From NCBI GenBank assembly GCA_040218795.1, contig JAVJQT010000011.1, positions 33,157 through 97,156 of the forward strand: a stretch of 64,000 bases of DNA, written 5' to 3'. Positions 11,245 through 49,746 of the stretch are shown piece by piece (within the stretch, counting starts at the first letter, position 1; every line of letters starts with the position of its first letter). The position numbers were made by a program, and so were the translations under genes. The notes beneath the pieces are model-generated. The model did no database searches. It worked only from the letters and a program-made list of their open reading frames with translations, and was not told the DNA's origin. The DNA comes from Cytophagales bacterium (GTDB taxonomy: Bacteria > Bacteroidota > Bacteroidia > Cytophagales > CCMP332).

Positions 11245-11556
11245 CTAGCTACAAAGCGATAAGCTACAATTGAGAATGTATTTGGGGGGAGATCCACTGG
11301 CTATATGCGTACGCAAATTATCCCAATGGATGATTGAAGTATTTGGATCATTTAATCGAATAATCCAGGCTGCATTTTGAATTCTTTTTATCTCTGAAAG
11401 GAGGTCTAAAAGTGCTTTTCCTTCTTTAAACTCTTCCAGAGAATCTTCTATTTCATACTTCTCCTTTTCGCCAATAAAACTATCGTTTGAGAGGCTGCTG
11501 TAGCCAACTGCTATGAGTAGGCCAAAAGAGAGGATATGAATAAATAAAGATTTCAT
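11245..11556 (-). CDS. small secreted hypothetical protein
   Basis: N-terminal signal peptide (MKSLFIHILSFGLLIAVGYS). Lies 82 bp upstream of dabA on the same strand. No recognisable family. Confidence 0.45.
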   Translation of the reverse strand: MKSLFIHILSFGLLIAVGYSSLSNDSFIGEKEKYEIEDSLEEFKEGKALLDLLSEIKRIQNAAWIIRLNDPNTSIIHWDNLRTHIASGSPPKYILNCSLSLCS

Positions 11557-20792: not shown

Positions 20793-21265
20793 TTAAAATC
20801 GTATAAGAACTGTGCTGTCTAATTTCAAGGCCGGATCAAAATGCTGAAAATAAATCAGTTATATTAATATCGGCCTGAACTGCTTTTAGTCCGGGCAGGC
20901 ATAAAATCTTTACCCTTATTTTACAGAAGTCCGATAAGTTATTTCAAATTTAATGCTGCGCATAAACAAATCTTTAGTCTTGTTTCATATCGTTCTGTTT
21001 ACTCGCCTATTAAGGCAGTAATAGTTATGGCTAAAGTTCCGGAATATCAAATAAAAGCTATTCTTCACTTATTAATAGGTGCGAGCACTCTTTCGGCTTT
21101 TTTATAAAAAGAGGAAAGGAGAATGAAGAAAACATAAAGCTTTCAACAAATCATACACATCGAAAAGGGCTGTACATTTCAAAAAAAAATCTTTCCATGT
21201 CCTATTTTCATCAGCTCATCCATTAAGTGATTAAAAAATAGATTTTTTAACTTAAAACGAAAAAC

Positions 21266-21607
21266 ATGAAAGATTTTATGATGCTGTTTCACAGCGAACC
21301 AAATCCCAACACTGAACCAACACCGGCGGAAATAGAAGCAGAGATCAAGGAATGGACCGACTGGATAGGAGAAATAGGCGCAAAGGGAAAATTGAAGAAT
21401 CAGGGAGAAGCACTGGGCTTCGAAGGCAAAACCATACATGCCGATGGCTCCATTACCGATGGCCCCTATGCAGAGGTCAAGGAAATAATCGGAGGGTTTA
21501 TTATTGTGACTGCAGAACATGTGGATGAAGCGGTTGGATTGGCAAAAGGTTGTCCGGGGCTGGCCAATGGGGGCAAGGTAGAGGTCAGAGAGGTCATTAA
21601 GATGTAA
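21266..21607 (+). CDS. YciI-family protein
   Basis: Small protein of 113 aa with DGPYAEVKEIIGGFIIV and GCP...G.VEVR motifs typical of YCII/DGPF proteins. Sits immediately upstream of the sigma factor gene. Confidence 0.7.
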   Translation: MKDFMMLFHSEPNPNTEPTPAEIEAEIKEWTDWIGEIGAKGKLKNQGEALGFEGKTIHADGSITDGPYAEVKEIIGGFIIVTAEHVDEAVGLAKGCPGLANGGKVEVREVIKM

Positions 21608-21616
21608 TAATCGGAA

Positions 21617-22846
21617 ATGGCTGATCCTCAAAAGCTATCCGAAATTTTTAAAACTGAGTACAGTAACCTGGTTGCTGTACTCAGTAATTATTATGGCATA
21701 AGCGATCTTCAGTATGCGGAGGATATTGTTTCAGAGACCTTCCTAAAAGCCATGAAGTCCTGGTCCCATAAGGGCATTCCGCAGTACCCCAGAGCATGGT
21801 TAAGAAAAGTGGCACAAAACTTATTCTACGAAGAACTCCGCAGAAAGAAAACCTTTAAAGATAAAATCAGCAAAGAAGTGCTATCCGAACAGGAATTTAC
21901 AGATAGCATTGAGATCACAGATAAAGTCATTGAAGATAGCCAGCTCAGAATGATGTTTTTGCTTTGTGATCCTGAATTAAATCGCGAAGCACAATTGTGC
22001 ATAGCCTTGCGAGTTCTATGCGGATTTAGCACCGAGGAAATTTCCAAAGCAATGCTTTCCAATAAAGAATCAGTTAATAAAAAGCTATATCGGGCCAAAA
22101 AAGCGCTTCGGAACCAGCTTTCTATCGATAGGGATTTAAGTCCTGCCGATTATGAGAAAAGACTTGACAATGTCTTGAGAGTAATTTACCTGCTCTTCAA
22201 CGAAGGCTATTATAGCTCAACGCTGGAGAATAATATTCGCCATGATTTATGCTGGGAAGCCATGCGATTGGGCATTTTTTTATCAAAACAACAACACTTT
22301 GAGCTTGCACATGTGCATGCACTTATTGCGCTCATGTGTTTTCATGCCTCCAGGCTCAATGCACGTCAATCGGGTGAAAAAGGGGATCTTCTTTACCATG
22401 AACAAGATAGGTCTCAATGGGATCAGGCGCTTATTACTAAGGGACAATCTTACCTCAAATTAGCCTCAGAAGGAAAACGTCTAAGCAAATACCATTTGGA
22501 AGCCATGATTGCATACTGGCATACGCGAGAGGAGGAGGGAAAGTGGCAGCAAATACTGATGCATTATAATAAACTGCTTACCCTGGAGTATTCTCCGGTC
22601 ATCGCAATGAACCGTTCCTTTGCCATGGCCAAAGTACATTCACCTAAAAAAGCCATAGAAAGCGCCTCCAAATTAGAACTTAAGGATAATGCCCATTATT
22701 GCTGTCTGATGGCCGAATTACACCGAATGAATATGGATACAGATCAGGAGATAAAGCAGCTCAATAAGGCCTTAAAATTGACTAAAAAGGAAAATGAAAA
22801 GGCTTTAATTCGAAAAAAACTGGAAAAGGCTTTTAATCGTACTTAA
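21617..22846 (+). CDS. sigma-70 family (ECF-like) RNA polymerase sigma factor with a long C-terminal extension
   Basis: Region 2-like (DIVSETFLKAMKSW...AWLRKVAQN) and region 4-like (LCGFSTEEISKAMLSNKESVNKKLYRAK) segments, followed by an extension of about 230 aa. Confidence 0.75.
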   Translation: MADPQKLSEIFKTEYSNLVAVLSNYYGISDLQYAEDIVSETFLKAMKSWSHKGIPQYPRAWLRKVAQNLFYEELRRKKTFKDKISKEVLSEQEFTDSIEITDKVIEDSQLRMMFLLCDPELNREAQLCIALRVLCGFSTEEISKAMLSNKESVNKKLYRAKKALRNQLSIDRDLSPADYEKRLDNVLRVIYLLFNEGYYSSTLENNIRHDLCWEAMRLGIFLSKQQHFELAHVHALIALMCFHASRLNARQSGEKGDLLYHEQDRSQWDQALITKGQSYLKLASEGKRLSKYHLEAMIAYWHTREEEGKWQQILMHYNKLLTLEYSPVIAMNRSFAMAKVHSPKKAIESASKLELKDNAHYCCLMAELHRMNMDTDQEIKQLNKALKLTKKENEKALIRKKLEKAFNRT

Positions 22847-29933: not shown

Positions 29934-30506
29934 TTAAGGATGAGCATCATTACTGCGCAGGGCTGATGGATTCATTCCCGTGACGTGTTTAAACTGTCCT
30001 GACAAATGATATGGGCTGCTAAAACCACATTTGAAGGCAATCTCTGATAGGGATAATTGCGTGTAAGCAAGTAACTCTTTGGCCTTTTCTATCCGTTGCT
30101 CAATGAAGTATTTTTCAATGCTTTTCCCCTCATATTTGCTAAAGAGATCGCTAATCACATCATAGCTTTGATTCATTTTCCCCGAAAGAAAATCCGATAA
30201 GCGCGACACTCTTTCACCATGACTATTAAGTTCGGTCCATTCGGTAATTAATTGCTTAATCTTAATTAGAGCTAGTTCATTTCTATCGGAGAGCAATTGG
30301 AAACCCAATCCATTGAGCATGGAATTCATTTTGGCTTTTTCCTCCTGTTTTAATGGTTCATCAAAAATGACTTTGCCCAATCGAATGTCTTTAATGGAGT
30401 AGCCCGCTGCTAGAAATAATTCCCGAATGGTATAAATGCACCTGTTGCACACCATTCCTTTAATATTGATTTCACGAATTTCTTCCATGATCAATGTTTC
30501 TAACAA
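29934..30506 (-). CDS. AraC-family regulator with an N-terminal HMA-like metal-binding domain
   Basis: N-terminus INIKGMVCNRCIYTI (HMA-like CxxC). C-terminal AraC HTH (LSEIAFKCGFSSPYHLSGQFKHVTGMNPS). Confidence 0.8.
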   Translation of the reverse strand: MLETLIMEEIREINIKGMVCNRCIYTIRELFLAAGYSIKDIRLGKVIFDEPLKQEEKAKMNSMLNGLGFQLLSDRNELALIKIKQLITEWTELNSHGERVSRLSDFLSGKMNQSYDVISDLFSKYEGKSIEKYFIEQRIEKAKELLAYTQLSLSEIAFKCGFSSPYHLSGQFKHVTGMNPSALRSNDAHP

Positions 30507-30562
30507 AATTGATGCATGGATGTAGAAAAAGTGTTACATCATTTCGGCTGTCTGTTTCAAGA

Positions 30563-31141
30563 TTATGTGATCTGATCGATGGATCTGCGGATAGAATTGT
30601 CCCTGTTTTCTTTGAATTGGGAAGGGCTCAGGCCGGTCACTTTTTTGAATTGTGTAGAGAGATGAGCCACACTGCTGTAACCCAACTGATAGGCTATTTC
30701 CTTCACCGAAAGTTCATCGTAGAAAAGGTATTCCTTCACTTTTTCGATCTTTTGTTTGATGATGTATTGCTCCAGGGTGATGCCTTCCACTAAGGAAAAC
30801 AAGCTACTTATATGTGAATAATCTTCGTCTAATTTTTCAGCCAAATAATGCGACCAGTTTATCTTTAATTCAAAATGCTTATGATGATGGATTTTGTCAA
30901 TGACCAGGGATTTGGTTTTTTCGAGAAGCAGGCTTTTTCTGTCATCAATAAGTTCAAATCCCTTCTCCAATAATGCTTTTTTTATGGCGGTAGTCTGCCT
31001 TTCGTTTAGGGGATGAAGAAGTTTTACTTCTCCAAGATTGATTGCAACTGGCTCAACATCTATATCTCTAAATATGGCCTCCACTACCAATTTACAGCGA
31101 TTACAAACCATGTTTTTGATGTGGATTGATATAGTGCTCAT
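30563..31141 (-). CDS. AraC-family regulator with an N-terminal HMA-like metal-binding domain (paralog of the previous gene)
   Basis: N-terminus IHIKNMVCNRCKLVV. C-terminal AraC HTH (VKEIAYQLGYSSVAHLSTQFKKVTGLSPS). Same architecture as its neighbour. Confidence 0.8.
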   Translation of the reverse strand: MSTISIHIKNMVCNRCKLVVEAIFRDIDVEPVAINLGEVKLLHPLNERQTTAIKKALLEKGFELIDDRKSLLLEKTKSLVIDKIHHHKHFELKINWSHYLAEKLDEDYSHISSLFSLVEGITLEQYIIKQKIEKVKEYLFYDELSVKEIAYQLGYSSVAHLSTQFKKVTGLSPSQFKENRDNSIRRSIDQIT

Positions 31142-31464
31142 AAGTTCATAAGGATATTGGTTATAAATTTAAATATTTCAGGAATCTTAATAAGGCAGGA
31201 GTATAAAAAGTTTTTATTGATTCGGACATCTATCAGCAATTGTCAAAAGAATTCTTGAATTACTTAGGATTGATTTGTAGGGGACAAATCATTTTTCTTA
31301 ATTTTTTGAGGGAAAGGCAGGGGAGACATACTCTTTTGGCATCTTTGGAATTTGAATGGCTTTGAGAAGAAAACAAACCGATAGATCTCGAACATCATTG
31401 AAAATAAGCAAGTAAGTGAGTAAATGTCTGTGGCTTTTGTGCTGGACTATATTTATCTTCGCAT

Positions 31465-31899
31465 ATGGCAGATGTGCACGATCCCGTTACCCGGTCATAC
31501 AATATGAGCCAGGTTAAAAGTAAAAACACGAAACCTGAATTGTTACTTCGAAAGAAACTATATTCCATGGGAATTAGATATAGAATAAACAACCAAAATA
31601 TTATCGGAAAACCGGATATCACAATTCAAAAATATAAATTGGTAATCTTTGTAGATGGAGATTTTTGGCATGGTCGTAATTGGCAAATAAAGAAATTCGA
31701 AATAAAAAGTCGTAGAGAATTTTGGTGGCCGAAAATTGAAAAGACCATTCACAGAGACGAAAAGGTAACTCACACCTTAAAAAGTAATGGTTGGACAGTA
31801 GTTAGAATTTGGGAAAAAGATATTTTAGAAAATTCAGACATTTACATTAATAAAATTTACAACATAATTAAGAAGCGGAAGAATGAAGAAATACAGTGA
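31465..31899 (+). CDS. vsr: very-short-patch repair endonuclease
   Basis: MADVHDPVTRSYNMSQVKSKNTKPEL...GKPDI...IFVDGDFWHG is a classic Vsr signature. Overlaps the downstream m5C methyltransferase gene by 17 bp. Confidence 0.9.
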   Translation: MADVHDPVTRSYNMSQVKSKNTKPELLLRKKLYSMGIRYRINNQNIIGKPDITIQKYKLVIFVDGDFWHGRNWQIKKFEIKSRREFWWPKIEKTIHRDEKVTHTLKSNGWTVVRIWEKDILENSDIYINKIYNIIKKRKNEEIQ

Positions 31900-33103
31900 G
31901 ATCAAAAAAGATTTAAAATTTAGTCAAAAAAACTTTGATGATACACGATTATCGGCTTTTACACATTATTTGCAATCCAGTAATAATGGAACAAATTCAT
32001 ATTTTATTGAATCAGCTTCTGATTATTACAATGAAAATGCTCCTGATGTTCATGATACTTCTCCTCTTGATTTGCTTTTACCAATAAAATGGGATATTCC
32101 TTTTCCTCCTCCTGATAAACCTAAATTTAAATTTATAGACCTTTTTGCCGGCATTGGAGGTTTTAGAATTGCAATGCAGAAATTAGGTGGTAAATGCGTC
32201 TTCACAAGTGAATGGGACGATAAAGCTAAAATAACATATGAAGCAAATTTTGGTGAAGTTCCATTTGGTGATATTACTCTTGAAGGAACTAAGAAATATA
32301 TTCCTGATGGTTTTGATATATTATGTGCGGGATTTCCTTGTCAAGCATTTAGCATTGCCGGAAAAAGAGGTGGATTTAATGATACCAGAGGCACACTATT
32401 TTTTGATGTTGCTGAAATAATAAGGCGAAAAAGGCCAAAGGCTATTTTTCTTGAAAATGTAAAGGGATTGTTTAATCACAGAAGTGGGCGTACACTTGCG
32501 ACAATCCTTAATGTTTTAAGAAATGATTTAGACTATTTTGTTCCTGAACCAAAAATTATAAATGCAAAAGATTTTGGAACTCCCCAAAATCGAGAAAGAA
32601 TATATATAGTAGGATTTGACAAAAAATTGGGTATTTCAGAATTTGAATATCCAGAACCTTTAAATCAAAATGTAGCTTTCGAAGACATCAAAGAGAATAA
32701 TGAAGTTTCAGTAAAATATTATTTGTCTACACAATACCTAAAGACCCTACGTGAACACAGAAAACGTCATGAAAGTAAAGGTAATGGATTCGGTTTTGAA
32801 ATAATTCCGGATGATGGCACGGCCAATGCAATAGTATGTGGCGGAATGGGAAGAGAAAGGAATCTTGTTATTGACGATCGATTGACCAATTTCCAACCAA
32901 TTACACATATAAAAGGAGAAGTTAATCGTGAAGGTATACGAAAAATGACTCCTCGTGAATGGGCGAGACTGCAAGGTTTCCCTGATACATTTAAAATCCC
33001 GGTTGCAGATGCTTCTGCCTACAAACAATTTGGGAATTCGGTGGCTATACCAGCAATTCAAGCCACTGCCGAAGTTATCTTGATGGCATTAAATGTTTCT
33101 TAG
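31883..33103 (+). CDS. dcm: DNA (cytosine-5)-methyltransferase
   Basis: Motif I FIDLFAGIGGF, motif IV GFPCQAFS, motif VI ENVKGL, motif VIII QNRERIYIVG and motif X QFGNSVAIP. Confidence 0.95.
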   Translation: MKKYSEIKKDLKFSQKNFDDTRLSAFTHYLQSSNNGTNSYFIESASDYYNENAPDVHDTSPLDLLLPIKWDIPFPPPDKPKFKFIDLFAGIGGFRIAMQKLGGKCVFTSEWDDKAKITYEANFGEVPFGDITLEGTKKYIPDGFDILCAGFPCQAFSIAGKRGGFNDTRGTLFFDVAEIIRRKRPKAIFLENVKGLFNHRSGRTLATILNVLRNDLDYFVPEPKIINAKDFGTPQNRERIYIVGFDKKLGISEFEYPEPLNQNVAFEDIKENNEVSVKYYLSTQYLKTLREHRKRHESKGNGFGFEIIPDDGTANAIVCGGMGRERNLVIDDRLTNFQPITHIKGEVNREGIRKMTPREWARLQGFPDTFKIPVADASAYKQFGNSVAIPAIQATAEVILMALNVS

Positions 33104-33755
33104 AAAAATAAAAGATATTCGAATTATTGGTGATGAGATTCATGCCATTCGTAAAACTAAAATCACTACTAAAGAACTTGAACTACAGATTTCAGACTTA
33201 CAATATTCGGGTCAAAAATTGGAATTAGAGGAAAATGTAGAGCAAGCACAATTACCTCCATTTGTTCAAGTATTTTACTATTATTTTTTTGCCTTTCTTA
33301 AAATTCCTTCTGAAGTCGAATTTTGGAATATTTACAATAGCTGGATTAATCCGAAAAAAAAGGAAACTATTGTTATAAAAAACAAAAAATTAAAAACTCT
33401 AAATATAAAATCCAGACTTTTAAGAACTTATCCATCATTGATTAGAGACCTTCATTTTTTGTACTTATTGAATGAATCACGAAAGTTCGATTCAATTGAA
33501 TATTCAATGCATCGTGACTATTTTGATGGTATTGATTTACGAGTTAGGTATAAAAATGTTGATTCTTATATTTCACTTTATATTAATACAGAAAGAGGAG
33601 ATTTCTATAAAAAGAGAAAAACGAAAAGGCATGATTATTCTGTTATAAATGAAATAGAATTCAAAGTAAATTTTGATGAATTAAAAAAATGCGGTAGTAT
33701 TTATTTATTAAAGGAATTTCACGTTCATACTTTGATAAACTTAATTGATGAATAA
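33093..33755 (+). CDS. hypothetical protein inside the R-M operon (function unknown)
   Basis: 220 aa, Lys/Asn/Ile-rich. Overlaps both neighbours by 11 bp, which suggests translational coupling. No motif I can name confidently. Confidence 0.5.
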   Translation: MFLRKIKDIRIIGDEIHAIRKTKITTKELELQISDLQYSGQKLELEENVEQAQLPPFVQVFYYYFFAFLKIPSEVEFWNIYNSWINPKKKETIVIKNKKLKTLNIKSRLLRTYPSLIRDLHFLYLLNESRKFDSIEYSMHRDYFDGIDLRVRYKNVDSYISLYINTERGDFYKKRKTKRHDYSVINEIEFKVNFDELKKCGSIYLLKEFHVHTLINLIDE

Positions 33756-34857
33756 AGAAAAATTAACTGGAAATAAGGGTGAATGGAGTGAGTTATATGT
33801 TTTATTCAAACTTTTGGCTGAAGCAAAGCTTTATTCAGCTGACGAAAATCTAAATAGAACTCATAATAATGTTGATGTTAAATCAATAAATAGAGTTGAT
33901 TCAGTCAGACAACTCATTTATGAAATTGATGATGGAGATGGAATAATAAATATTATTGATGGATTAAGAAATGAAAAAATAAAATCTTTAACTAAGACGG
34001 AAGCAATTAATCTTTCAACTAAATTAGTTAATGAAATTAAAAGTGGTGCAGGAAGAGCATTTTCCGTAAGTAAAAGATTAAAGGCTCTTCTCAATAAGTA
34101 TGAAATAACTAAAGTCTCTGAAAAATCATCCAGTAAAAGCGATATTGATATTAAAATTTATGATCCAAAACATTCTTTGACAAGTCAGCAAAAGTTCAGT
34201 ATAAAATCCCTTTTAGGAAGTCAACCAACATTGTTTAATGCAAATAAAACCACAAATATAATTTACAAACTAACAGGTCAAAATGGTAGTCCACTTACTG
34301 GTAAACAAGTCGAGGAAATTAATAAAATTGGTAATCCTTATAAGTATATTAAACGGACTAAGGATATAGTTAATAAAGGATTTAAGATTAAATTTCATTC
34401 CTTTCAGGATGACACATTTAAGTTAAATCTTCAATTAATAGACAGTGATTTACCAGTGATCATTGCTAGTATCGTATTGGATAAATACCTCAAAGAGATA
34501 ACAAAAATTACTGATGTAATTCAGGAATTGAACAAATCAAACCCTATGGGATATGATTTGACACAAGGACATAATTTCTATGAATATAGAATTATTAATT
34601 TCTTGATTGAATCAGCCTTGGGAATGACCTCAAAAACTGTTTGGACTGGGGAATATGATGTAATTGGTGGAATTATAATCGTTAAGCCAAATGAAGAAGT
34701 TCTATGCTATCATTTGATTGACTTTAATAAATTTAAAACTTATTTAAAAAACTCTTGTCGAATTGACAATCCATCAGGCTCTAAAATGGGCTATGGTAAT
34801 GTTTACAAAGACAATGGAGAAACATTTATTAAGTTGAATTTTCAGATTAAAGCGTAA
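33745..34857 (+). CDS. HpaII-family type II restriction endonuclease (likely)
   Basis: The N-terminal GNKGEWSELYVLFKLLAEAKLYSADENL and the ~370-aa size match my recollection of the RE_HpaII family. Operon context with an m5C MTase and Vsr fits. Confidence 0.65.
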   Translation: MMNKEKLTGNKGEWSELYVLFKLLAEAKLYSADENLNRTHNNVDVKSINRVDSVRQLIYEIDDGDGIINIIDGLRNEKIKSLTKTEAINLSTKLVNEIKSGAGRAFSVSKRLKALLNKYEITKVSEKSSSKSDIDIKIYDPKHSLTSQQKFSIKSLLGSQPTLFNANKTTNIIYKLTGQNGSPLTGKQVEEINKIGNPYKYIKRTKDIVNKGFKIKFHSFQDDTFKLNLQLIDSDLPVIIASIVLDKYLKEITKITDVIQELNKSNPMGYDLTQGHNFYEYRIINFLIESALGMTSKTVWTGEYDVIGGIIIVKPNEEVLCYHLIDFNKFKTYLKNSCRIDNPSGSKMGYGNVYKDNGETFIKLNFQIKA

Positions 34858-35018
34858 GTAATTCATATAATTTCTATTTAATTATATAGTTATTTTGGCT
34901 TATCTACAGGTTTATTTGTTGAACTATTCTTATAATAATATCACATAATATGTTTCATATAGAACGATAATGTAGCTTAAGATACAACTGCAAGAATTAT
35001 AGTAAGGATTTAGTTAGT

Positions 35019-35182: not shown

Positions 35183-36472
35183 ATGGAAATTTTTGAACAA
35201 GAACTTATATCCAAACCACAACTTGTAAAGAAATTTTACCTAATTGAATATTTCTATATCTTACTTAAAAGTGTTGATAATAACAAAGATCTTAATTCAA
35301 TTTTCGAATCCTTTAGAACGCTTAAGCACAAGTATCAGTTAGGTGAATCCAAGTATAAAAAATTAACACTTACGGATGAGGATCTTTCAAACAAGCAATT
35401 AACTAGATATATCTATACCCTGCAGCAAGTAATAAGTGAAGCTTTGGACTACGGGCTGATAAAAGAAGGTAAGGAAAAAAACACAGTCGAGTTAACAAAA
35501 AAAGGAGCTAACTTAATAGAATACTTTGATACTGATCGACAGATGTATAGTGAAATGCTATTAAAATTGATGGAGCATAAACACTATGCATTTTACCACC
35601 TCGTAAATTTATGCTATCGTGTCAATACTTTTAAGCAGGGCCTTCTAATATTACCTATATATTCTCCACTAAAGCTTGGTTTTGTAAAGAAAGAGATTAC
35701 CAAAACTGGACATATCTTAGCATATTTAGATAAGCTTACACACCAACTTCAAAATGATTTAAAGAAGTACACTGGTAAGAACAAAAGGCTAGGTAAGATC
35801 CAAAAAGAATTAGTAACTGAATTGGTTTCTGATGGTTTTCTTATAAGTGAAAATCCAAAATCTAATTTTGATCTTTCTCGATATAATTCGATTCTAAGAA
35901 AAATACGAAGTTATTGGTTGAACTTTATTCTTAAGAATATTTATGATTACACTTACTCTTTTGATACTTTTAATATTTGGGCAGAACGGGGTAAACAATT
36001 GGGTATATTGCAGTCAACTGAGTTTTATCCAGGAGTAAATGGTAGGATGGTATATCCTACATCAATTCTCAAAAAGGCGGTTAAGAATAATGATTTTAAA
36101 GAAGTATATTCATATACAAATAGTGATAAACTTTATTTGCACAAACCGAAGTGGAAGGATAATCAAGAAAAATTTGTTGATACATTGCATTCTTCATATT
36201 TTGAATTAAGGAAGAATAGAAATAATAATTTGTTTGTTAACCTTACTGATTTGCGTGAGAAGGTTTGTTATAGGTTAAGGATTCCCACTTTTGTATTCGA
36301 TGATTTCTTAAACAAAACATATTTATTGAATTTAAAAGGGCAATTGAAAATTCAAATATCTTTAGAGGCTGATAGGTTGCCTCAAGAAACTAGTGCTATG
36401 TATCTTAAAAGAGAGCCTGTGCTAATCAATGGTAAGTATAAAAATATTATCGCAATAGATTACAAAAAATGA
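35183..36472 (+). CDS. hypothetical protein, possible winged-helix content (gene 1 of the four-gene operon)
   Basis: 429 aa. The segment QQVISEALDYGLIKEGKEKNTVELTKKGANLIEY looks MarR/wHTH-like. Its stop overlaps the next start (ATGA, 36469-36472). No family recognised. Confidence 0.6.
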   Translation: MEIFEQELISKPQLVKKFYLIEYFYILLKSVDNNKDLNSIFESFRTLKHKYQLGESKYKKLTLTDEDLSNKQLTRYIYTLQQVISEALDYGLIKEGKEKNTVELTKKGANLIEYFDTDRQMYSEMLLKLMEHKHYAFYHLVNLCYRVNTFKQGLLILPIYSPLKLGFVKKEITKTGHILAYLDKLTHQLQNDLKKYTGKNKRLGKIQKELVTELVSDGFLISENPKSNFDLSRYNSILRKIRSYWLNFILKNIYDYTYSFDTFNIWAERGKQLGILQSTEFYPGVNGRMVYPTSILKKAVKNNDFKEVYSYTNSDKLYLHKPKWKDNQEKFVDTLHSSYFELRKNRNNNLFVNLTDLREKVCYRLRIPTFVFDDFLNKTYLLNLKGQLKIQISLEADRLPQETSAMYLKREPVLINGKYKNIIAIDYKK

Positions 36473-37875
36473 GCAAGCTATTAAAAAAAGCTAAACAAGA
36501 ATTTAAAGATGAAAAAGGAAAATATGAGATTTATAATCTTAGAGAAAATCCTTTTCCTTCAACACCTATAGTAAATCAAGAAGATCAAGATATTCGATAT
36601 AACGGAGGAATATTTGAAGAGAAGATAAGACAAGAAGAGTGGAAAAAAGTTTATGATAACTTTTTAAAAGTTTCTCAAAGCAATCCTAACCATCTAAGAA
36701 TAGGCTATATATTGGATACTTCATACGTAGGAAGAGGGAATGGCAAATCCTCATTTTGTGTAAATCTTTTAAAAAGTATAAATGAGCAGTTTTGCTTAGA
36801 TATTTCTAATGAAGAGAATAAGTGCTTCGGATTATATGTTTCGCCTGAGCCAAGTGGTCGAACGAAATCATTCTATAATTTGGTTGATATCATATTTGAA
36901 AACTTAATTGATAATGATATCATTGATTCTTGTTTGGCGACGCTAAGACTAGAGGCACTCTTAAAAATTAAAGATGATTTTGATGTTAGTCAATTTGATT
37001 CGGACCAACAAATTGTAGATAAATTGAATTCCCCTGAATGGTTCAAAACAAATGAGATTGAGGTTGCTAAGGTTGCCAAAGAAATATTAAAGAATGAGTA
37101 TCTATCAAAGTTATCTCAAGGGTTTCCTTTGTTTAGAGATAGAAATAATTTTTTTGGAACAACTATCACTACAAAGGAAGATTTCAAGATATACTATTCT
37201 AATCTAAAAAAAGGACAACAAAGAATCGATTTTGTTTTCACTGACTTGGTTAAATTCTTTTTAGCCGCTGGATTTAATGGAGCATATATCTTTATAGATG
37301 ATTTTGAGAGAATACCTGATTTTCAAAGCGATAGACAAAAGAGAGAATTTGCTTTAGAGATTAGAACCAATTTCTTTGATGGCGTTTCAACTAATGCAAA
37401 ACTAGGGTTCTATAATTTATTTCTTATTCTTCATGCAGGAGTACCAAGATTGGTAGAAAAAGCTTGGGCTGAAGCTGGAATGGAGCAGAGAAGTCCAATT
37501 ATAACTGCAAGCCCAACATCAAACCATATAATCTTTTTTGAAAAGCTCACACCACAACATGGGGTCCTACTAATAAAGAGGTATATGGATGAATATAGGA
37601 TTAAACAAGAAAATGATAAAAATGAAAAATCAGTCAAACCCTTTACTGATGATGCAATACAAAGAATAGGGGAGATAACTGAAATGAATGCTGCAGGTAT
37701 ATTACAAAAAGCTCATCATGCATTAGAGAAAGGTGCAGAAAACAAAGTGGGCGAAATTGATTCTGAATATATAAAAGAATTATTTGGAGAAATAAAGAAG
37801 GTGGAACTAGAAAGTACAGATTTTGAGGATGAGGATGACACCGTAGATCTATTTAAAAAATCTGAAGAAGACTAA
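36469..37875 (+). CDS. divergent P-loop NTPase (gene 2 of the four-gene operon)
   Basis: Walker A-like GRGNGKSS (nt 36730-36753) and Walker B IFIDDFE (nt 37288-37308), about 185 aa apart. N-terminal ENPFPSTP resembles the lead-in of ORC/ExeA-type AAA ATPases. Acidic C-terminal tail. Confidence 0.7.
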   Translation: MSKLLKKAKQEFKDEKGKYEIYNLRENPFPSTPIVNQEDQDIRYNGGIFEEKIRQEEWKKVYDNFLKVSQSNPNHLRIGYILDTSYVGRGNGKSSFCVNLLKSINEQFCLDISNEENKCFGLYVSPEPSGRTKSFYNLVDIIFENLIDNDIIDSCLATLRLEALLKIKDDFDVSQFDSDQQIVDKLNSPEWFKTNEIEVAKVAKEILKNEYLSKLSQGFPLFRDRNNFFGTTITTKEDFKIYYSNLKKGQQRIDFVFTDLVKFFLAAGFNGAYIFIDDFERIPDFQSDRQKREFALEIRTNFFDGVSTNAKLGFYNLFLILHAGVPRLVEKAWAEAGMEQRSPIITASPTSNHIIFFEKLTPQHGVLLIKRYMDEYRIKQENDKNEKSVKPFTDDAIQRIGEITEMNAAGILQKAHHALEKGAENKVGEIDSEYIKELFGEIKKVELESTDFEDEDDTVDLFKKSEED

Positions 37876-37889
37876 AACGCATCGCATTT

Positions 37890-38261
37890 ATGGATAAGTT
37901 TTGTTTAACTAAAAGGCAGTGTAAACAGCTTCTTGACAATGAGCTATTCGGAATATTAGATGAAAGTGAAGATGACCCTGACTTAATTGCAATTATAGAA
38001 AGAGCAAGAGATTATTATGAAATAGAAATAGTTGTGTTTAATTATTTCATTTCAAAACTTTTGGAACAATATCAAAAAAAAGATGCGTCAAAGTGCAATA
38101 AGGTAATTGAGTATATAAGTGAAATAGATAAAAAGATGTTCGCAACACTAGAAGAGTTCGATTCAAAATTCATAGACTTGATGATGACGAGAAGTATGCC
38201 TAGTAAACTCAACACTCTTGAAGAGGATCTATTGGAAATAAGAAACTCTTTTCATGGCTAA
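37890..38261 (+). CDS. small acidic helical hypothetical protein (gene 3; possible antitoxin or adaptor)
   Basis: 123 aa. Starts 14 bp after the ATPase stop, and its stop overlaps the PIN gene start by 8 bp. No recognisable DNA-binding motif. Confidence 0.55.
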   Translation: MDKFCLTKRQCKQLLDNELFGILDESEDDPDLIAIIERARDYYEIEIVVFNYFISKLLEQYQKKDASKCNKVIEYISEIDKKMFATLEEFDSKFIDLMMTRSMPSKLNTLEEDLLEIRNSFHG

Positions 38262-38700
38262 GAGATATGTCATTGATACCAATTCGTTGATATCCTATTT
38301 TTCAGATATTTTTGGGGAGCCTTCAAAAATATCGAAATCCTCACTTAGTATAATCAATTCCGCCTTTCTTCAGGAAAATGTAGTTTTAATCATCCCTAAT
38401 GTTGTTTTCGTTGAAATATTTAAAAAGTGGTATCGGAGTAATGAGTGGTCAGAGAAAATTAAGTATGAAGTATATCAAAAGGTAATCTCGAGGCCTAATA
38501 TCGAAATTCGCTCAATTGATATTGAGTTAATTGAATACTTTGTGAGTATTACAGAAATTGAGTCTAAATACAATTTCGACAATCATGATAAGCAAATTTT
38601 AGCATGCGCAATGATGCTAGATTGTGATTTGATTACTTCAGATCAAAAGCTAATGAGGTATAATAGAAGAATGAATGTTGTTCCTGCCATACATAACTAA
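38254..38700 (+). CDS. PIN-domain nuclease (gene 4)
   Basis: YVIDTNSLISYF (first Asp), VVFVEIF (Glu), NHDKQILACA (Asp) and LITSDQKL (Asp) give the PIN acidic quartet in the usual order and spacing. Confidence 0.75.
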   Translation: MAKRYVIDTNSLISYFSDIFGEPSKISKSSLSIINSAFLQENVVLIIPNVVFVEIFKKWYRSNEWSEKIKYEVYQKVISRPNIEIRSIDIELIEYFVSITEIESKYNFDNHDKQILACAMMLDCDLITSDQKLMRYNRRMNVVPAIHN

Positions 38701-38840: not shown

Positions 38841-39299
38841 CATTTAGGCTTACTTCACTTGTTAAGAATATCCTTATTTAAATGGCCGCAAATCCCTTAA
38901 CATAAAACACAATGTTATTTTACTTTCTTCGCTTTGCTCGAATGTCAAATAACGATTTTATGTTAAATATCCGGCTTATATCACAGCATGTAAATAACTA
39001 TCAGTCTACATTTAGGCTAACTTCAATTGTTAAGAATATCTTTATGTTTATGGCCGCAAATCCCTTAACATAAAACACAATGTTATTTTACTTTCTTCGC
39101 TTTGCTCGAATGTCAAATAACGGTTTTATGTTAAATATCCGGCTTATATCACAGCAGGTAAATAACTATTAGTCTACATTTAAACTAACTTCACTTGTTA
39201 ATAATATCTTTATGTATATGGCCGCAAATCCCTTAACATAAAATCGTAAACGTTATCGTACTGCGTAGCGATAACTGATTTTATGTTAAATATCCGGCT
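38841..39299. repeat. tandem array of three 168-bp units, each with a conserved imperfect hairpin
   Basis: Units start at 38841, 39009 and 39177. Hairpins span 38884-38975, 39052-39143 and 39220-39298. The common stem is TTAACATAAAA/TTTTATGTTAA with a GCCG/CGGC clamp. The apical stem is GTTATTT/AAATAAC in copies 1-2 and GTTATCG/CGATAAC in copy 3. Confidence 0.9.
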
Positions 39300-39438
39300 G
39301 CGCCGTCTATTACGGGATTTGCTATTTGTGTTTCATAATTTATATTATGTTAAGTAAGTTATTTCAGGATATACCCTATTAAGCGTCAATGCTTTGGCCT
39401 TTCTTAATATATTTGGGATAATTAATCATAATCTTATT

Positions 39439-48803: not shown

Positions 48804-49667
48804 TTACCTTTTAAAAACCCTAACCCAATCCACCAGCATTTCAGAGGAGTCTGCATAATTCGCGGAATTGCGATCGAAAAAGAAAAATCCACCTACAGCG
48901 GTATTTAAAACAATTTTTTGATCTGAACCATAGAAATTCCCGATGTTATTATTGGAATTAGCAGCATAACTGTAAAGCAGGGAATCATCAAATAAAATAT
49001 CGATGGAATCGGCTTTCCAGATCATTTCATAGCTATGAAAGTCTGCCGTTAAATCAGGACCGGGAATATGCTCTAAATCGTTATTGCTATTGATATTGAT
49101 GTCGGTTTCTGTACCATAAAAAATATTGGTTTGAAACATATAAGGCTCACCGCCCCTCGCTTCCAGAATGTCAATCTCTCCCTTTGTGGGCCAGGGATCG
49201 CCATAAGTCCAAAAGGCCGGCCACATGCCATGGCCCTGTGGTAGCTTAATGCTCGCAACAAAACGGTACTCCCTTTCGCCTTCATTATCGGATGGACTAA
49301 AAAGGGTTTTGGATTCTATACGGCCCGATACGTATTCAAATTGTTTGGAATTATTACTCCAGGGATGTTCAAAACCCGTAATGGCCTCGCGTTTGCTTTT
49401 GATGCTCAGTTTGCCATCGGCTATGCTCAATTGTTCTTCGCGGTACAATTGTATCTCTTCATTAAAGGCCCCGCCTTCCCAGATATTCCATTTGACAAGA
49501 TTATTTTCAAAATCTTCTTCAAAAATCAAGTCCCAACTTGTTTCTGTACTGTCATTTTCTGTAATGGGCTCAACAGCAGCAGGCACAGTTTCATCATCCG
49601 AACAGGCCATATTCAGGGTCAGGAAAAAGACTAAAAAAATGTATTCCTTGAAAAGAGAATATTTCAT
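48804..49667 (-). CDS. glycoside hydrolase family 16 lipoprotein (laminarinase-like)
   Basis: Lipobox LNMACS, the catalytic EIDILE (ExDxxE) motif and the WPAFW pattern. Confidence 0.85.
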   Translation of the reverse strand: MKYSLFKEYIFLVFFLTLNMACSDDETVPAAVEPITENDSTETSWDLIFEEDFENNLVKWNIWEGGAFNEEIQLYREEQLSIADGKLSIKSKREAITGFEHPWSNNSKQFEYVSGRIESKTLFSPSDNEGEREYRFVASIKLPQGHGMWPAFWTYGDPWPTKGEIDILEARGGEPYMFQTNIFYGTETDININSNNDLEHIPGPDLTADFHSYEMIWKADSIDILFDDSLLYSYAANSNNNIGNFYGSDQKIVLNTAVGGFFFFDRNSANYADSSEMLVDWVRVFKR

Positions 49668-49746
49668 GAATCAAAGAAACAATTTTATAGTAAATTATTT
49701 TGGTAATTTGATGCTGTCATATTTTTCCCATTAAAAACAATAACAA

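Follow-up and report, generated by a model that had tools for sequence, protein, structure and literature searches.

The window (the whole 64-kb stretch of DNA that was analysed) carries three tandem 168-bp units, each with a hairpin, situated between a four-gene operon and a chromosomal dif site. The last gene of the operon encodes a PIN protein, and restriction-modification (R-M) genes lie upstream of it. The features of the locus are as follows:

31465–34857, + strand, R-M genes (Vsr, C5-methylase, a 220-aa ORF and an HpaII-type endonuclease)
35183–38700, + strand, four-gene operon of unknown function (429, 468, 123 and 148 aa, the last being the PIN protein), a separate module
38841–39008, + strand, repeat unit 1: 43-nt leader, truncated and degenerate hairpin module (38884–38975) and 33-nt tail
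39009–39176, + strand, repeat unit 2: architecture as in unit 1, with the hairpin at 39052–39143
39177–39222, + strand, leader of unit 3, sharing about 90% identity with those of units 1 and 2
39223–39323, + strand, intact dif-adjacent structured element (unit 3), a full member of its family
39328–39355, + strand, canonical chromosomal dif site: GTGTTTCATAA / TTTATA / TTATGTTAAGT, 11-6-11

The repeat array and the dif site

The three tandem 168-bp units and their hairpins, as given in the preliminary description, are real. Tandem Repeats Finder placed the array at 38841–39243, with a period of 168, 2.4 copies, 94% matches and a score of 722. Units 1 and 2 share 95% identity across 168 nt, and all three are 90–91% identical over their first 67 nt; in the alignment, the apex of unit 3 is swapped and is 13 nt shorter than in units 1 and 2. 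The 20-nt hairpin arms GCAAATCCCTTAACATAAAA and TTTTATGTTAAATATCCGGC each occur exactly three times in the window, with no further site even at up to three mismatches, and none of 100 shuffles gave three matches. The hairpins of all three units fold on both strands (z = −2.9 to −4.7).

The 168-bp units are non-coding, and no convincing dif-like junctions bounding them were found in the window. The boundaries between units fall within the small hairpin of the structure (P3, see below) and the array boundaries vary between genomes, so that unequal crossing-over or replication slippage could explain the copy number. A search for the empty site found no array-free relative among contigs carrying identical flanking proteins. 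A separate repeat, D3 (29904, 30534 and 39310), was considered as a relic dif and rejected; it consists of the flanks of AraC paralogues and a chance 14-mer.

Chromosomal dif sites are recombined by XerC and XerD under the control of FtsK. By its sequence, the site at 39328–39355, which starts five bases past the array, is the canonical chromosomal dif. It has the 28-bp, 11-6-11 layout, the inner ATAA of the XerC arm and an XerD arm of the form TTATGTTAAnT, and it differs from the dif pattern at 2 of 22 bases (39334–39355). The sequence also agrees with dif sites predicted for Bacteroidetes by Kono et al. 2011, for example that of Pedobacter (TAGTCACATAATTAATATTATGTTAAGT). Only one such site is present in the 64-kb window, and it is intergenic. 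The GC skew turns from positive to negative with a local maximum at about 38–40 kb, a trend seen over 64 kb and shaped also by local gene orientation. Neither xerC nor xerD was found in the window among the larger ORFs scanned.

Fold and distribution of the structured element

The intact element of unit 3 is a three-way structure, in which a closing stem (P1) encloses a long arm (P2 plus an apical stem) and a small hairpin (P3). Its parts are:

39224–39232 with 39314–39322, + strand, P1, closing stem
39233–39245 with 39277–39289, + strand, P2, base of the long arm
39246–39251, + strand, 5′ bulge between P2 and the apical stem
39252–39258 with 39269–39275, + strand, apical stem, top of the long arm
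39289–39311, + strand, P3, small hairpin
39264–39291, + strand, internal dif-like site 'B', in the 3′ half of hairpin 3: CGTAGCGATAA / CTGATT / TTATGTTAAAT

Unit 3 scores 73.5 bits (E = 4e-15) against a covariance model of the family described below, and its DNA fold has a free energy of −25.6 kcal/mol (z = −6.7). The corresponding scores are 26.6 bits for unit 1 (38886–38999), with P1 and P3 unpaired, and 29 bits for unit 2 (39054–39167). Both units lack the 3′ strands of P1 and P3 and are, accordingly, truncated copies. The 11-bp stem reported previously is present, as are the 7-bp apical stems, GTTATTT/AAATAAC in units 1 and 2 and GTTATCG/CGATAAC in unit 3. The complementarity noted between GGGATTTGC (39314–39322) and GCAAATCCC also holds, and this outer GGGATTTGC is part of the structure. 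The GCCG/CGGC 'clamp', however, is not the closing helix of the family, as the conserved fold closes by P1.

The long arm resembles a dif site. P2 reads as a duplex of the XerD-binding arm of dif, and the 3′ strand of the long arm presents, in order, an XerC-like arm, CTGATT and the XerD arm, in the dif-like 11-6-11 arrangement. The 5′ strand is an imperfect complement of the 3′ strand, with about five extra bases in the central region. Site B matches the dif pattern with one mismatch (39270–39291); its third part, TTATGTTAAAT, is the exact 11-mer of the XerD arm, and the site is a direct repeat of dif. Between the B arm and the arm of the adjacent dif, 8–11 of 11 positions are alike (9–11 in 32 of 34 loci).

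About 40 loci from diverse Bacteroidota carry the same element, always on the side of the XerC arm and oriented as dif. Among the 37 class-1 hairpin instances (genome_contigs), 28 sit 27–75 nt upstream of a canonical dif that points the same way; most of the others either have inserted DNA splitting their dif or are inner copies of a tandem array. Both position and orientation are fixed, and P1 ends about 5 nt short of the XerC arm. The covariance model recovers 42 copies at 51–105 bits, three of them found independently by a metagenome scan for dif only. Carrier genomes have one locus each, every one appearing once among the 120 loci scanned; carriers include Cyclobacterium qasimii M12-11B, Saccharicrinis sp. 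FJH54 and the complete genomes OY787449.1 and OY764960.1. About 120 dif sites were sampled, and these gave three adjacent copies and one displaced copy (~3–4%), many Bacteroidota-type dif sites being without the element. This family of dif-adjacent folded modules appears to be undescribed.

In an alignment fitted to the model, 95.9% of cells are paired, compared to 78% in shuffles and 31–41% when the partners are slid, and double changes occur in 23 of 34 pairs (9/9 in P1, 5/5 in P3 and 6/7 in the apical stem). The complementarity of P1 is sequence-specific, with a median of 9 within an element against 6 between elements. P2 is nearly invariant across the family and equals the XerD arm, although part of this invariance comes from the search itself, as most homologues were found by means of an exact-P2 pattern. 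The earlier view that structure is kept while the apex changes is thus borne out, the apical swap of unit 3 being one instance of covariation across the whole family. The leader of unit 3 is not conserved in other genomes, and the upstream flanks of the homologues are unrelated.

Tandem arrays are present in at least six other genomes (L071, L098, L097/L054, L092, L067 and L060). In L071 and L098, the leftmost copy starts at the boundary between the XerC arm and the central region of the B site, consistent with a precise Xer junction; the array boundaries of L054 and of the window do not bear on this point. In Cellulophaga baltica, two dif-like sites enclose a module of about 300 bp that contains a degenerate copy. 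Many Bacteroidales loci have inverted dif-like sites 15–170 nt upstream of the element, and a position-weight-matrix scan (96 kb upstream against 127 kb downstream) shows upstream dif-like sites to be only weakly enriched. In the window, two candidates for a second dif-like junction that would bound an IMEX (31143–31170 and 34860–34887) were not significant. A Pfam search of 60 upstream ORFs of at least 80 aa, from 29 hairpin-bearing loci, found no conserved neighbour gene. Downstream, a TPR-gyrA synteny is seen in Bacteroidales and represents host backbone.

Relation to Xer recombination and alternative readings

The module adjoins dif, mimics dif when folded and recurs beside dif, and is therefore linked to Xer recombination and not to the PIN gene; the part suggested for XerC and XerD is drawn from sequence mimicry only. 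The best explanation, to which about an even chance is given, is that the array represents one intact (unit 3) and two truncated (units 1 and 2) non-coding modules of about 100 nt that belong to the dif locus and are probably a passenger of the Xer system. As single-stranded or extruded DNA, the arm would offer host XerC and XerD a dif-like duplex with a bulged central region, much as the folded attP(+) of CTXφ does and, as a remoter parallel, integron attC sites do. The module would then probably be a small passenger of Xer recombination, of a selfish or an accessory kind, either a protein-less element of the IMEX type or an accessory arm of one. Its copy number beside dif may shift by recombination, giving the tandem arrays seen here and elsewhere, and the apical swap in unit 3 may represent the replacement of a variable XerC-side module between two conserved XerD-arm repeats. 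A bolder version, which is tentative and on balance doubtful, is that these are a family of protein-less miniature integrative elements of about 100–300 bp in Bacteroidota chromosomes (or else 'guards' of dif), which contain nothing but a three-way-junction mimic of dif, hijack host XerC/XerD as folded or extruded DNA, insert and multiply on the XerC side, and exchange the variable XerC-side apex between their conserved XerD-arm repeats.

For a non-coding, Xer-linked module of folded DNA, the closest comparison on the best reading is with CTXφ attP(+), in which inverted dif-like sites pair around central regions of 12 and 5–7 bp (PMC4246890). In both, inverted dif-like half-sites would pair to rebuild an XerC/XerD substrate with an asymmetric, bulged centre (about 11 and 6 nt here), and both adjoin dif and are commonly found in tandem copies. 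Paired inverted dif-like sites around a mismatched centre, as known from CTXφ and IMEXs, are thus present. No carrier in the form of a mobile ssDNA replicon without its own recombinase was found in a search of limited sensitivity, nor any shared cargo. The module differs from CTXφ attP(+) in its loop (10–25 nt, compared to 90), in the enclosure of its arm within a three-way junction (P1, P3) that CTXφ does not have, in the lack of phage or coding cargo, and in its host phylum, Bacteroidota. The layout also speaks against the best reading, being unlike a simple integration product of the CTXφ type. The 3′ half of the hairpin is not fused to dif; in the window and in 28 of 37 class-1 instances, an intact hairpin (with site B), P3 and P1 precede a separate and complete dif, which is not the product of a CTX-type single-strand exchange.

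Plasmid sites such as cer and psi have accessory sequences, which are non-coding and about 100–180 bp long, flank the core site on its XerC side and modulate Xer recombination. By analogy, the module could be a resident host accessory element of dif, supplying structured or cruciform extra XerD-binding sites on the XerC side that tune dimer resolution, block or channel the integration of IMEXs, or have a role at the terminus; a second parallel is offered by the SMC-unloading, XerD-only sites of Bacillus. In favour of this, the place and direction of the module are constant, the gap from P1 to the XerC arm being about 5 nt, and where other IMEXs have inserted at dif (L171, L101) it has kept to the chromosomal XerC side. 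The absence of strand asymmetry (see below) is what a cruciform or duplex role would give, and the persistence of the element in related Cyclobacterium genomes (L054, L097) is equally compatible with residence in the host. However, it occurs at only ~3–4% of sampled canonical dif sites, its multiplication in tandem and its decayed copies suggest selfishness more than function, and the covariation of P1, P3 and the apical stem speaks for folding within one strand and not for simple duplex sites. The cer and psi accessory DNA, by contrast, binds PepA, ArgR or ArcA as a duplex, is plasmid-borne, and shows neither hairpin covariation nor extra XerD arms. A resident element is considered possible but unlikely.

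Alternatively, the module could be what is left of the attachment region of an ssDNA element. According to this reading, a microvirus, an inovirus, an FLiP/ΦCjT23-like phage or a conjugatively transferred element entered dif through a folded attP, and its genes were later lost. Integration at dif is documented for Bacteroidetes microviruses and for Flavobacterium ssDNA phages, and some of these have an additional dif-like site in inverted orientation (PMC3091885, PMC9719478). The attP-like site of one microvirus has arms identical to the dif of the window, and the inverted dif-like sites upstream of many Bacteroidales loci would fit the same history. Yet none of six microvirus genomes with dif-like sites contained the element when scanned with the covariance model (best 18.5 bits), and the hairpin was absent from IMG/VR (exact-stem scan), INPHARED and PLSDB, where only the dif part matched. 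The 60 ORFs of at least 80 aa upstream of the 29 hairpin-bearing loci include no capsid or Rep genes, and the conserved, covarying P1/P3 architecture is unlike a decaying remnant. A relic of this kind is improbable.

The preliminary description had proposed, among other readings, a structured RNA tied to the PIN operon. The module might then be a non-coding RNA made by read-through from the operon, as a type III toxin-antitoxin-like antitoxin or substrate, or else an independent sRNA. Its strong covariation and compact three-way junction would suit an RNA, the array and operon share a strand, and a terminator-like site was looked for between the PIN stop codon and the array and none was found, as had been reported. 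But the genes upstream of the ~40 homologous elements are unrelated, and a survey of 520 homologues of the 468-aa protein (contexts L257 to L261) identified operons at dif without the hairpin (L257) and with neither dif nor hairpin (L259, L261). Operon and array are not conserved together: operons without repeats are found at L257/L258, L259 and L261, the repeats also have homologues without the operon, and this mutual independence is unlike a ToxI-like type III system. G·T and A·C mismatches are equally frequent (20 each), so that there is no strand asymmetry and no excess of G·U over A·C, and the folding of both strands likewise favours DNA over RNA. The −7 promoter motif of Bacteroidota was found upstream of none of 41 elements. 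Rfam gave no match at gathering thresholds across the whole window and, for the region itself at E up to 10, only a chance-level match to STnc340 (20 bits, against a gathering score of 80). Neither the exact XerD-arm sequence nor the adjacency to dif has an RNA rationale, and a functional RNA is very improbable. Of the earlier interpretation, the claim that the hairpins are selected structures is supported by the covariation, whereas the link to the PIN operon is not.

The description had also compared the hairpins to attC sites, and here the notion of a folded recombination site fits in spirit, as the boxes are XerD-arm, dif-like sequence (TTATGTTAAAT) and a dif follows, whereas an integron system does not. 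Resembling attC sites, which are folded, strand-specific substrates of a tyrosine recombinase with conserved outer boxes ending in AAC/GTT, bulged bases and a variable apex, the modules show paired inverted boxes, an asymmetric bulge, a variable apex and an arrangement in tandem, as might suggest a cassette array or a CALIN of empty cassettes. The 3′ box (R′), GTTAAAT, fits GTTRRRY, but R″, CCTTAAC, fails at position 1, and the spacer, unpaired in attC, is here a fully paired 13-bp stem with the bulge above it. The boxes belong to an 11-nt XerD arm that the dif next to them shares unchanged. Among the 51 larger window ORFs scanned, for part of them among the 25 of 52 matched families listed, neither an integron integrase nor any other tyrosine recombinase was found; the scan covered the ORFs of at least 90 aa except 19, nine of these being at least 100 aa (for example 9474–9812, 11245–11556, 21179–21631, 21266–21607 and 49225–49734). 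Unlike integron cassettes, the 'cassettes' here are without ORFs, and the homologues stand singly beside dif, at one locus per genome, and not behind cassette ORFs. True attC sites are scarcely credible. Least credible of all is a generic dispersed repeat (REP/BIME or MITE), the third of the earlier proposals: such a size is typical of the hairpin repeats known as REPs, and a REP/RAYT family in Lachnospiraceae has the same 11-nt stem, but the element lies at dif and at a single locus in the window and in each carrier genome, and is therefore not dispersed, while REP-bearing genomes appear 5–9 times among the 120 loci scanned.

Cargo and meaning of the dif region

The R-M genes and the PIN operon form a low-GC (~30%) island on the XerC side of dif. 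The 10-mer TATTTCAGGA occurs at both edges of the island but is not statistically convincing. Comparison of the operon proteins with PADLOC, NCBIfam and Pfam recognised no family except PIN. Three independent lineages have the four-gene PIN operon at dif, and it is this shared location that makes neighbours of the operon and the repeats. The PIN operon is separate, recurrent cargo of dif and provides a context for the hairpins, not a partner. Together with the R-M system, it would represent other cargo gathered at the same dif hotspot.

The accumulation at Xer sites of DNA bounded by dif-like sequences is likewise seen in the pdif modules of Acinetobacter plasmids and in IMEXs (TLCφ, VGJφ and the gonococcal genetic island), and several insertions of this kind are present in the dif regions of these Bacteroidota (L101, L171, L260, L013/L058). 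Unlike the module described here, pdif modules and IMEXs carry genes, use plain 28-bp duplex sites and have no conserved, structured non-coding module.

Chromosome dimer resolution in Bacteroidota has been without experimental study (as stated in PMC3091885), and the element provides a conserved and testable handle on DNA recognition by XerC/XerD in this phylum. The array also accounts for breaks in short-read assemblies at the dif locus. The dif region of Bacteroidota is a place where R-M systems and other defence-like cargo accumulate, including an uncharacterised PIN operon, and to view it as a site of accretion helps in the annotation of genomic islands. If the element is a folded Xer substrate, then the hairpin principle of CTXφ and attC would reach into a large phylum and cover a module that is non-coding and apparently self-propagating. 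If the miniature-element reading is true, these modules would be the smallest known class of IMEX and the first sign that Xer recombination of folded DNA, so far a peculiarity of CTX-type phages of Vibrio, is widespread in another phylum.

The tandem array and the neighbouring dif site

The 168 bp tandem repeat reported in the preliminary description was borne out by Tandem Repeats Finder (38841–39243, 94% matches, score 722) and by alignment of the three units, which begin at 38841, 39009 and 39177. Units 1 and 2 are 95% identical, and the first 67 nt are common to all three at 90–91% identity. The apical stems are also as described there, including the swapped apex of the unit 3 hairpin, which differs in sequence and is 13 nt shorter than in units 1 and 2. 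As the flanks are 90–95% identical and the apex is unrelated, the latter arose by replacement and not by point mutation. Even with up to 3 mismatches permitted, each of the two 20 nt hairpin arms has exactly three matches in the 64 kb window (three matches in 0/100 shuffles), and all hairpins fold on both strands (z = −2.9 to −4.7). Assemblies from short reads of the same population end inside the array (L124:1–64; contig ends L122, L123, L127 and L128), and one MAG contig terminates as a snap-back palindrome through dif, probably an assembly artefact.

Features of the window discussed in the text
35183–38700: four-gene operon (429, 468, 123 and 148 aa), the last gene encoding a PIN protein
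39223–39323: element of unit 3, complete, 73.5 bits against the family covariance model
39264–39291: internal dif-like 'B' site in the 3′ half of unit 3, CGTAGCGATAA, CTGATT, TTATGTTAAAT, 11-6-11 layout
39328–39355: dif site, GTGTTTCATAA, TTTATA, TTATGTTAAGT, five bases past the outer stem of unit 3

All hairpins have a 3′ arm (TTTTATGTTAAAT) that includes TTATGTTAAAT, the canonical XerD-binding arm of dif, the site of chromosome dimer resolution. A search of the window with the Bacteroidetes dif pattern recovers the B site and a better match at 39328–39355, which agrees with the Bacteroidetes dif sites predicted by Kono et al. 2011 (PMC3025954, supplement; e.g., Cytophaga TTGTTATATAATTTACATTATGTTAAAT, Pedobacter TAGTCACATAATTAATATTATGTTAAGT). 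Cumulative GC skew has its maximum at about 38–40 kb, turning from positive to negative as expected of a terminus; over only 64 kb, this is support and not proof. The dif site is in itself unremarkable. In many Bacteroidales, the XerD side of dif carries two converging genes as a conserved pair, one for a TPR-like lipoprotein (about 390 aa) and then gyrA (L002, L004, L005, L006, L012, L017, L025, L088, L092, L119 and other loci). A 33 nt repeat family weakly matching 39310–39342 is explained by the similar 3′ flanks of two tandem AraC-type regulator paralogues (29934–31141).

Microviruses and ssDNA phages of Bacteroidetes are described as integrating at dif. The genome of bajarodmic virus 533 (PQ006714.1) has an intergenic dif-like site, TTGTGTTTCATAA, TCAAATG, TTATGTTAAGT (L262:1259–1294), both arms of which are identical to those of the window dif. 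This sequence match suggests that microviruses target dif of the host lineage; the virus carries no hairpin element.

A structured element family upstream of dif

A scan of the genome collection for both 11 nt stem strands gave at least 120 loci in three classes, the third being assorted palindromic terminators. Class 1 comprises, among the matches listed, about 34 Bacteroidota loci with the architecture of the window (Bacteroidales, Rikenellaceae, Prolixibacteraceae, Saccharicrinis, Flavobacteriaceae, Owenweeksia, Fluviicola, Cyclobacterium, Roseivirgaceae and Cytophagales), with one appearance per genome. In 28/37 instances, a canonical dif of the same orientation follows the hairpin 27–75 nt downstream; in most of the others, either an insertion splits dif or the copy sits within a tandem array. 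Class 2, among the matches listed, is a many-copy hairpin family of a few Lachnospiraceae and Eubacterium genomes. Ordinary genes (Maf, aldo-keto reductase and biotin synthase) separate its copies, and an IS200-like Y1 transposase (L040:2111–2893) lies among them; the family is thus a REP/RAYT-type repeat. The class 2 hairpin, GTTAACATAAAA-RTGGACC...GGTCCAY-TTTTATGTTAAC, is found at L040:962–4657 and in L007, L030, L046, L079, L093 and other loci (MAGs), and has the same 11 nt stem as the dif-linked element.

The flanks of the class 1 hairpin are conserved in pattern as a 9 bp closing helix, P1. The complementarity between GGGATTTGC (39314–39322) and GCAAATCCC at the foot of each hairpin, noticed previously, is the window version of this helix. 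Across the family, a small hairpin, P3, separates the long arm from the 3′ strand of P1. The DNA fold of unit 3 (−25.6 kcal/mol, z = −6.7) comprises P1, P2 plus the apical stem, and P3. Against the family model, units 1 and 2 reach 26.6 and 29 bits. They diverge from unit 3 starting inside P3, lack the 3′ strand of P1, and have 5 nt rather than 6 nt in the central region of the B site; both are copies that have decayed or been truncated. The module swap in unit 3 exemplifies a variability seen throughout the family, in which the XerC-side apex changes between two XerD-arm repeats that stay constant.

With a covariance model built from 26 copies, 42 copies score 51–105 bits, three of them reached independently via a dif-only scan of metagenome contigs. 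In the 42-copy alignment, which is fitted to the model, 95.9% of cells are paired, compared with 78% in column shuffles and 31–41% with partners slid, and compensatory double changes occur at 23/34 pairs (P1, 9/9; P3, 5/5; apical stem, 6/7). In a model-independent test of P1, the 5′ flank of an element forms a median of 9 pairs with its own 3′ flank and 6 with the flanks of other elements, where 9 is reached by only 6%. P2, the XerD-arm duplex, is near-invariant, and the few substitutions it shows preserve pairing (A-T becoming T-A in L144, L171 and L200). Between the internal B arm and the XerD arm of the adjacent dif, 8–11 of 11 positions agree (9–11 in 32/34 loci). The structure of the element is under selection.

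Several features favour DNA over RNA: G·T mismatches are as common as A·C mismatches (20 of each), both strands fold, the Bacteroidota −7 promoter motif is found upstream of 0/41 elements, sequence conservation begins sharply at P1, and the Rfam scan proposed in the preliminary description matched no family.

The four-gene operon and the low-GC island

To the left of dif is a low-GC island (~30%) with Vsr, a C5 methylase, an HpaII-type endonuclease and the four-gene operon. Only the 148 aa protein of the operon is recognisable, as PIN; the first three have no Pfam, NCBIfam or PADLOC match. Homologues of the 468 aa protein number 520 (E ≤ 1e-10) and come from Bacteroidota, cyanobacteria, Planctomycetes and other groups, and the cassette (~430, 465, 120 and 148 aa) is kept in all four homologue contexts examined. 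In L257/L258 (85% identity) it ends 137 nt before a canonical dif; in Cellulophaga baltica (L260) it lies between an IMEX-type left junction (IMEX, elements integrating via host Xer recombinases) and a dif-like site; in L259 and L261 it is accompanied by neither dif nor hairpin. On the criterion set in the preliminary description itself, the earlier proposal that the repeats are a type III-like RNA antitoxin of this operon is refuted by the homologous operons without the hairpin (L257/L258, L259 and L261). The 60 ORFs upstream of 29 hairpin-bearing loci have no family in common. The operon is a recurrent dif cargo, adjoining the repeats because of a shared hotspot. Since it adjoins R-M systems or dif in several of the genomes compared (the window, L257, L258, L259, L260 and L261), the cassette is a candidate uncharacterised defence system.

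A 10-mer, TATTTCAGGA, is present at the left island edge (31176–31185) and 11 nt to the right of dif (39366–39375), and a weak dif-like sequence (TAAGTTCATAA, GGATAT, TGGTTATAAAT) at 31143–31170; these could be island boundaries or chance. The HpaII gene and the operon are separated by a stretch with two more weak dif-like sites, a direct and an inverted one (34860–34887 and 34938–34965; matrix scores 8.3 and 8.4), which may mark the junction of two successively integrated modules.

Distribution and possible role of the element

The element is sporadic and multiplying. In an unbiased sample of metagenome contigs it adjoins 3 of ~120 canonical dif sites (L144, L200 and L224). In a fourth case, L171, the element is directly followed by a hybrid site keeping the XerC arm, with ~12 kb of other DNA before the present dif; L101 shows the same pattern with a 1.5 kb insert. 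The element therefore remains on the XerC side when other elements integrate. Extra tandem or decayed copies occur in L071, L098, L097/L054, L092, L067 and L060, and the leftmost, 5′-truncated copy in L071 and L098 starts at the boundary between the XerC arm and central region of the B site, the predicted XerC cut point. C. baltica has a degenerate copy within a ~300 bp segment with a dif-like site at each end, and many Bacteroidales loci have an inverted dif-like site 15–170 nt upstream of the element.

Other dif-integrated elements were also seen. L171:1195–1420 and L260:4480–4705, from unrelated genomes, are homologous left ends of ~200 nt (XerC arm, then TGTTCTGCGTTATGTWAC...) with different cargo, 12 kb and the four-gene PIN operon respectively. 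In two Bacteroidales MAGs (L013:4446–4560 and L058:1537–1620), one shared sequence (...GCATTATAGCCTGTCCCGA...) breaks into the dif next to the hairpin behind its XerC arm, which points to another such family.

The central region of the long arm has ~11 nt on the 5′ side versus 6 nt on the 3′ side. If single-stranded or extruded, this arm would present a dif-like duplex with a bulged central region to XerC/XerD. The closest working analogue is CTXφ attP(+), with two inverted sites whose central regions are 12 and 5–7 bp (PMC4246890) and similarly asymmetric; the element differs in that no mobile carrier was found and the junction is of the wrong type. Integron attC sites, suggested previously, retain a looser likeness, but no IntI was found among the larger window ORFs scanned and there are no cassettes. 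The likeness to cer/psi accessory sequences is also looser, and hairpin covariation and extra XerD arms set the element apart from them. The element lacks defining features of each of these systems. Full-text searches turned up papers on dif-integrating microviruses and ssDNA phages of Bacteroidetes but none on a structured element beside dif, so it is apparently undescribed, and its mechanism is a prediction from sequence.

Three observations count against an IMEX-type module. The product expected of CTX-type single-strand exchange is a hairpin fused to dif, whereas the arrangement here is an intact hairpin, then P3 and P1, and then a separate dif; searches of viral, phage and plasmid collections and of six microviruses bearing dif-like sites gave no free carrier; and the unit boundaries in the window are not recognisable as Xer junctions, so that slippage or unequal exchange may explain the three copies. 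The strongest rival, a resident host accessory element of dif, is judged unlikely. The position, orientation, fold and dif mimicry of the element, its sporadic distribution and its tandem amplification are all shown by the sequence comparisons. In the most likely reading, it is an IMEX-type passenger or accessory module, non-coding and Xer-dependent, the copy number of which would shift by recombination at dif.
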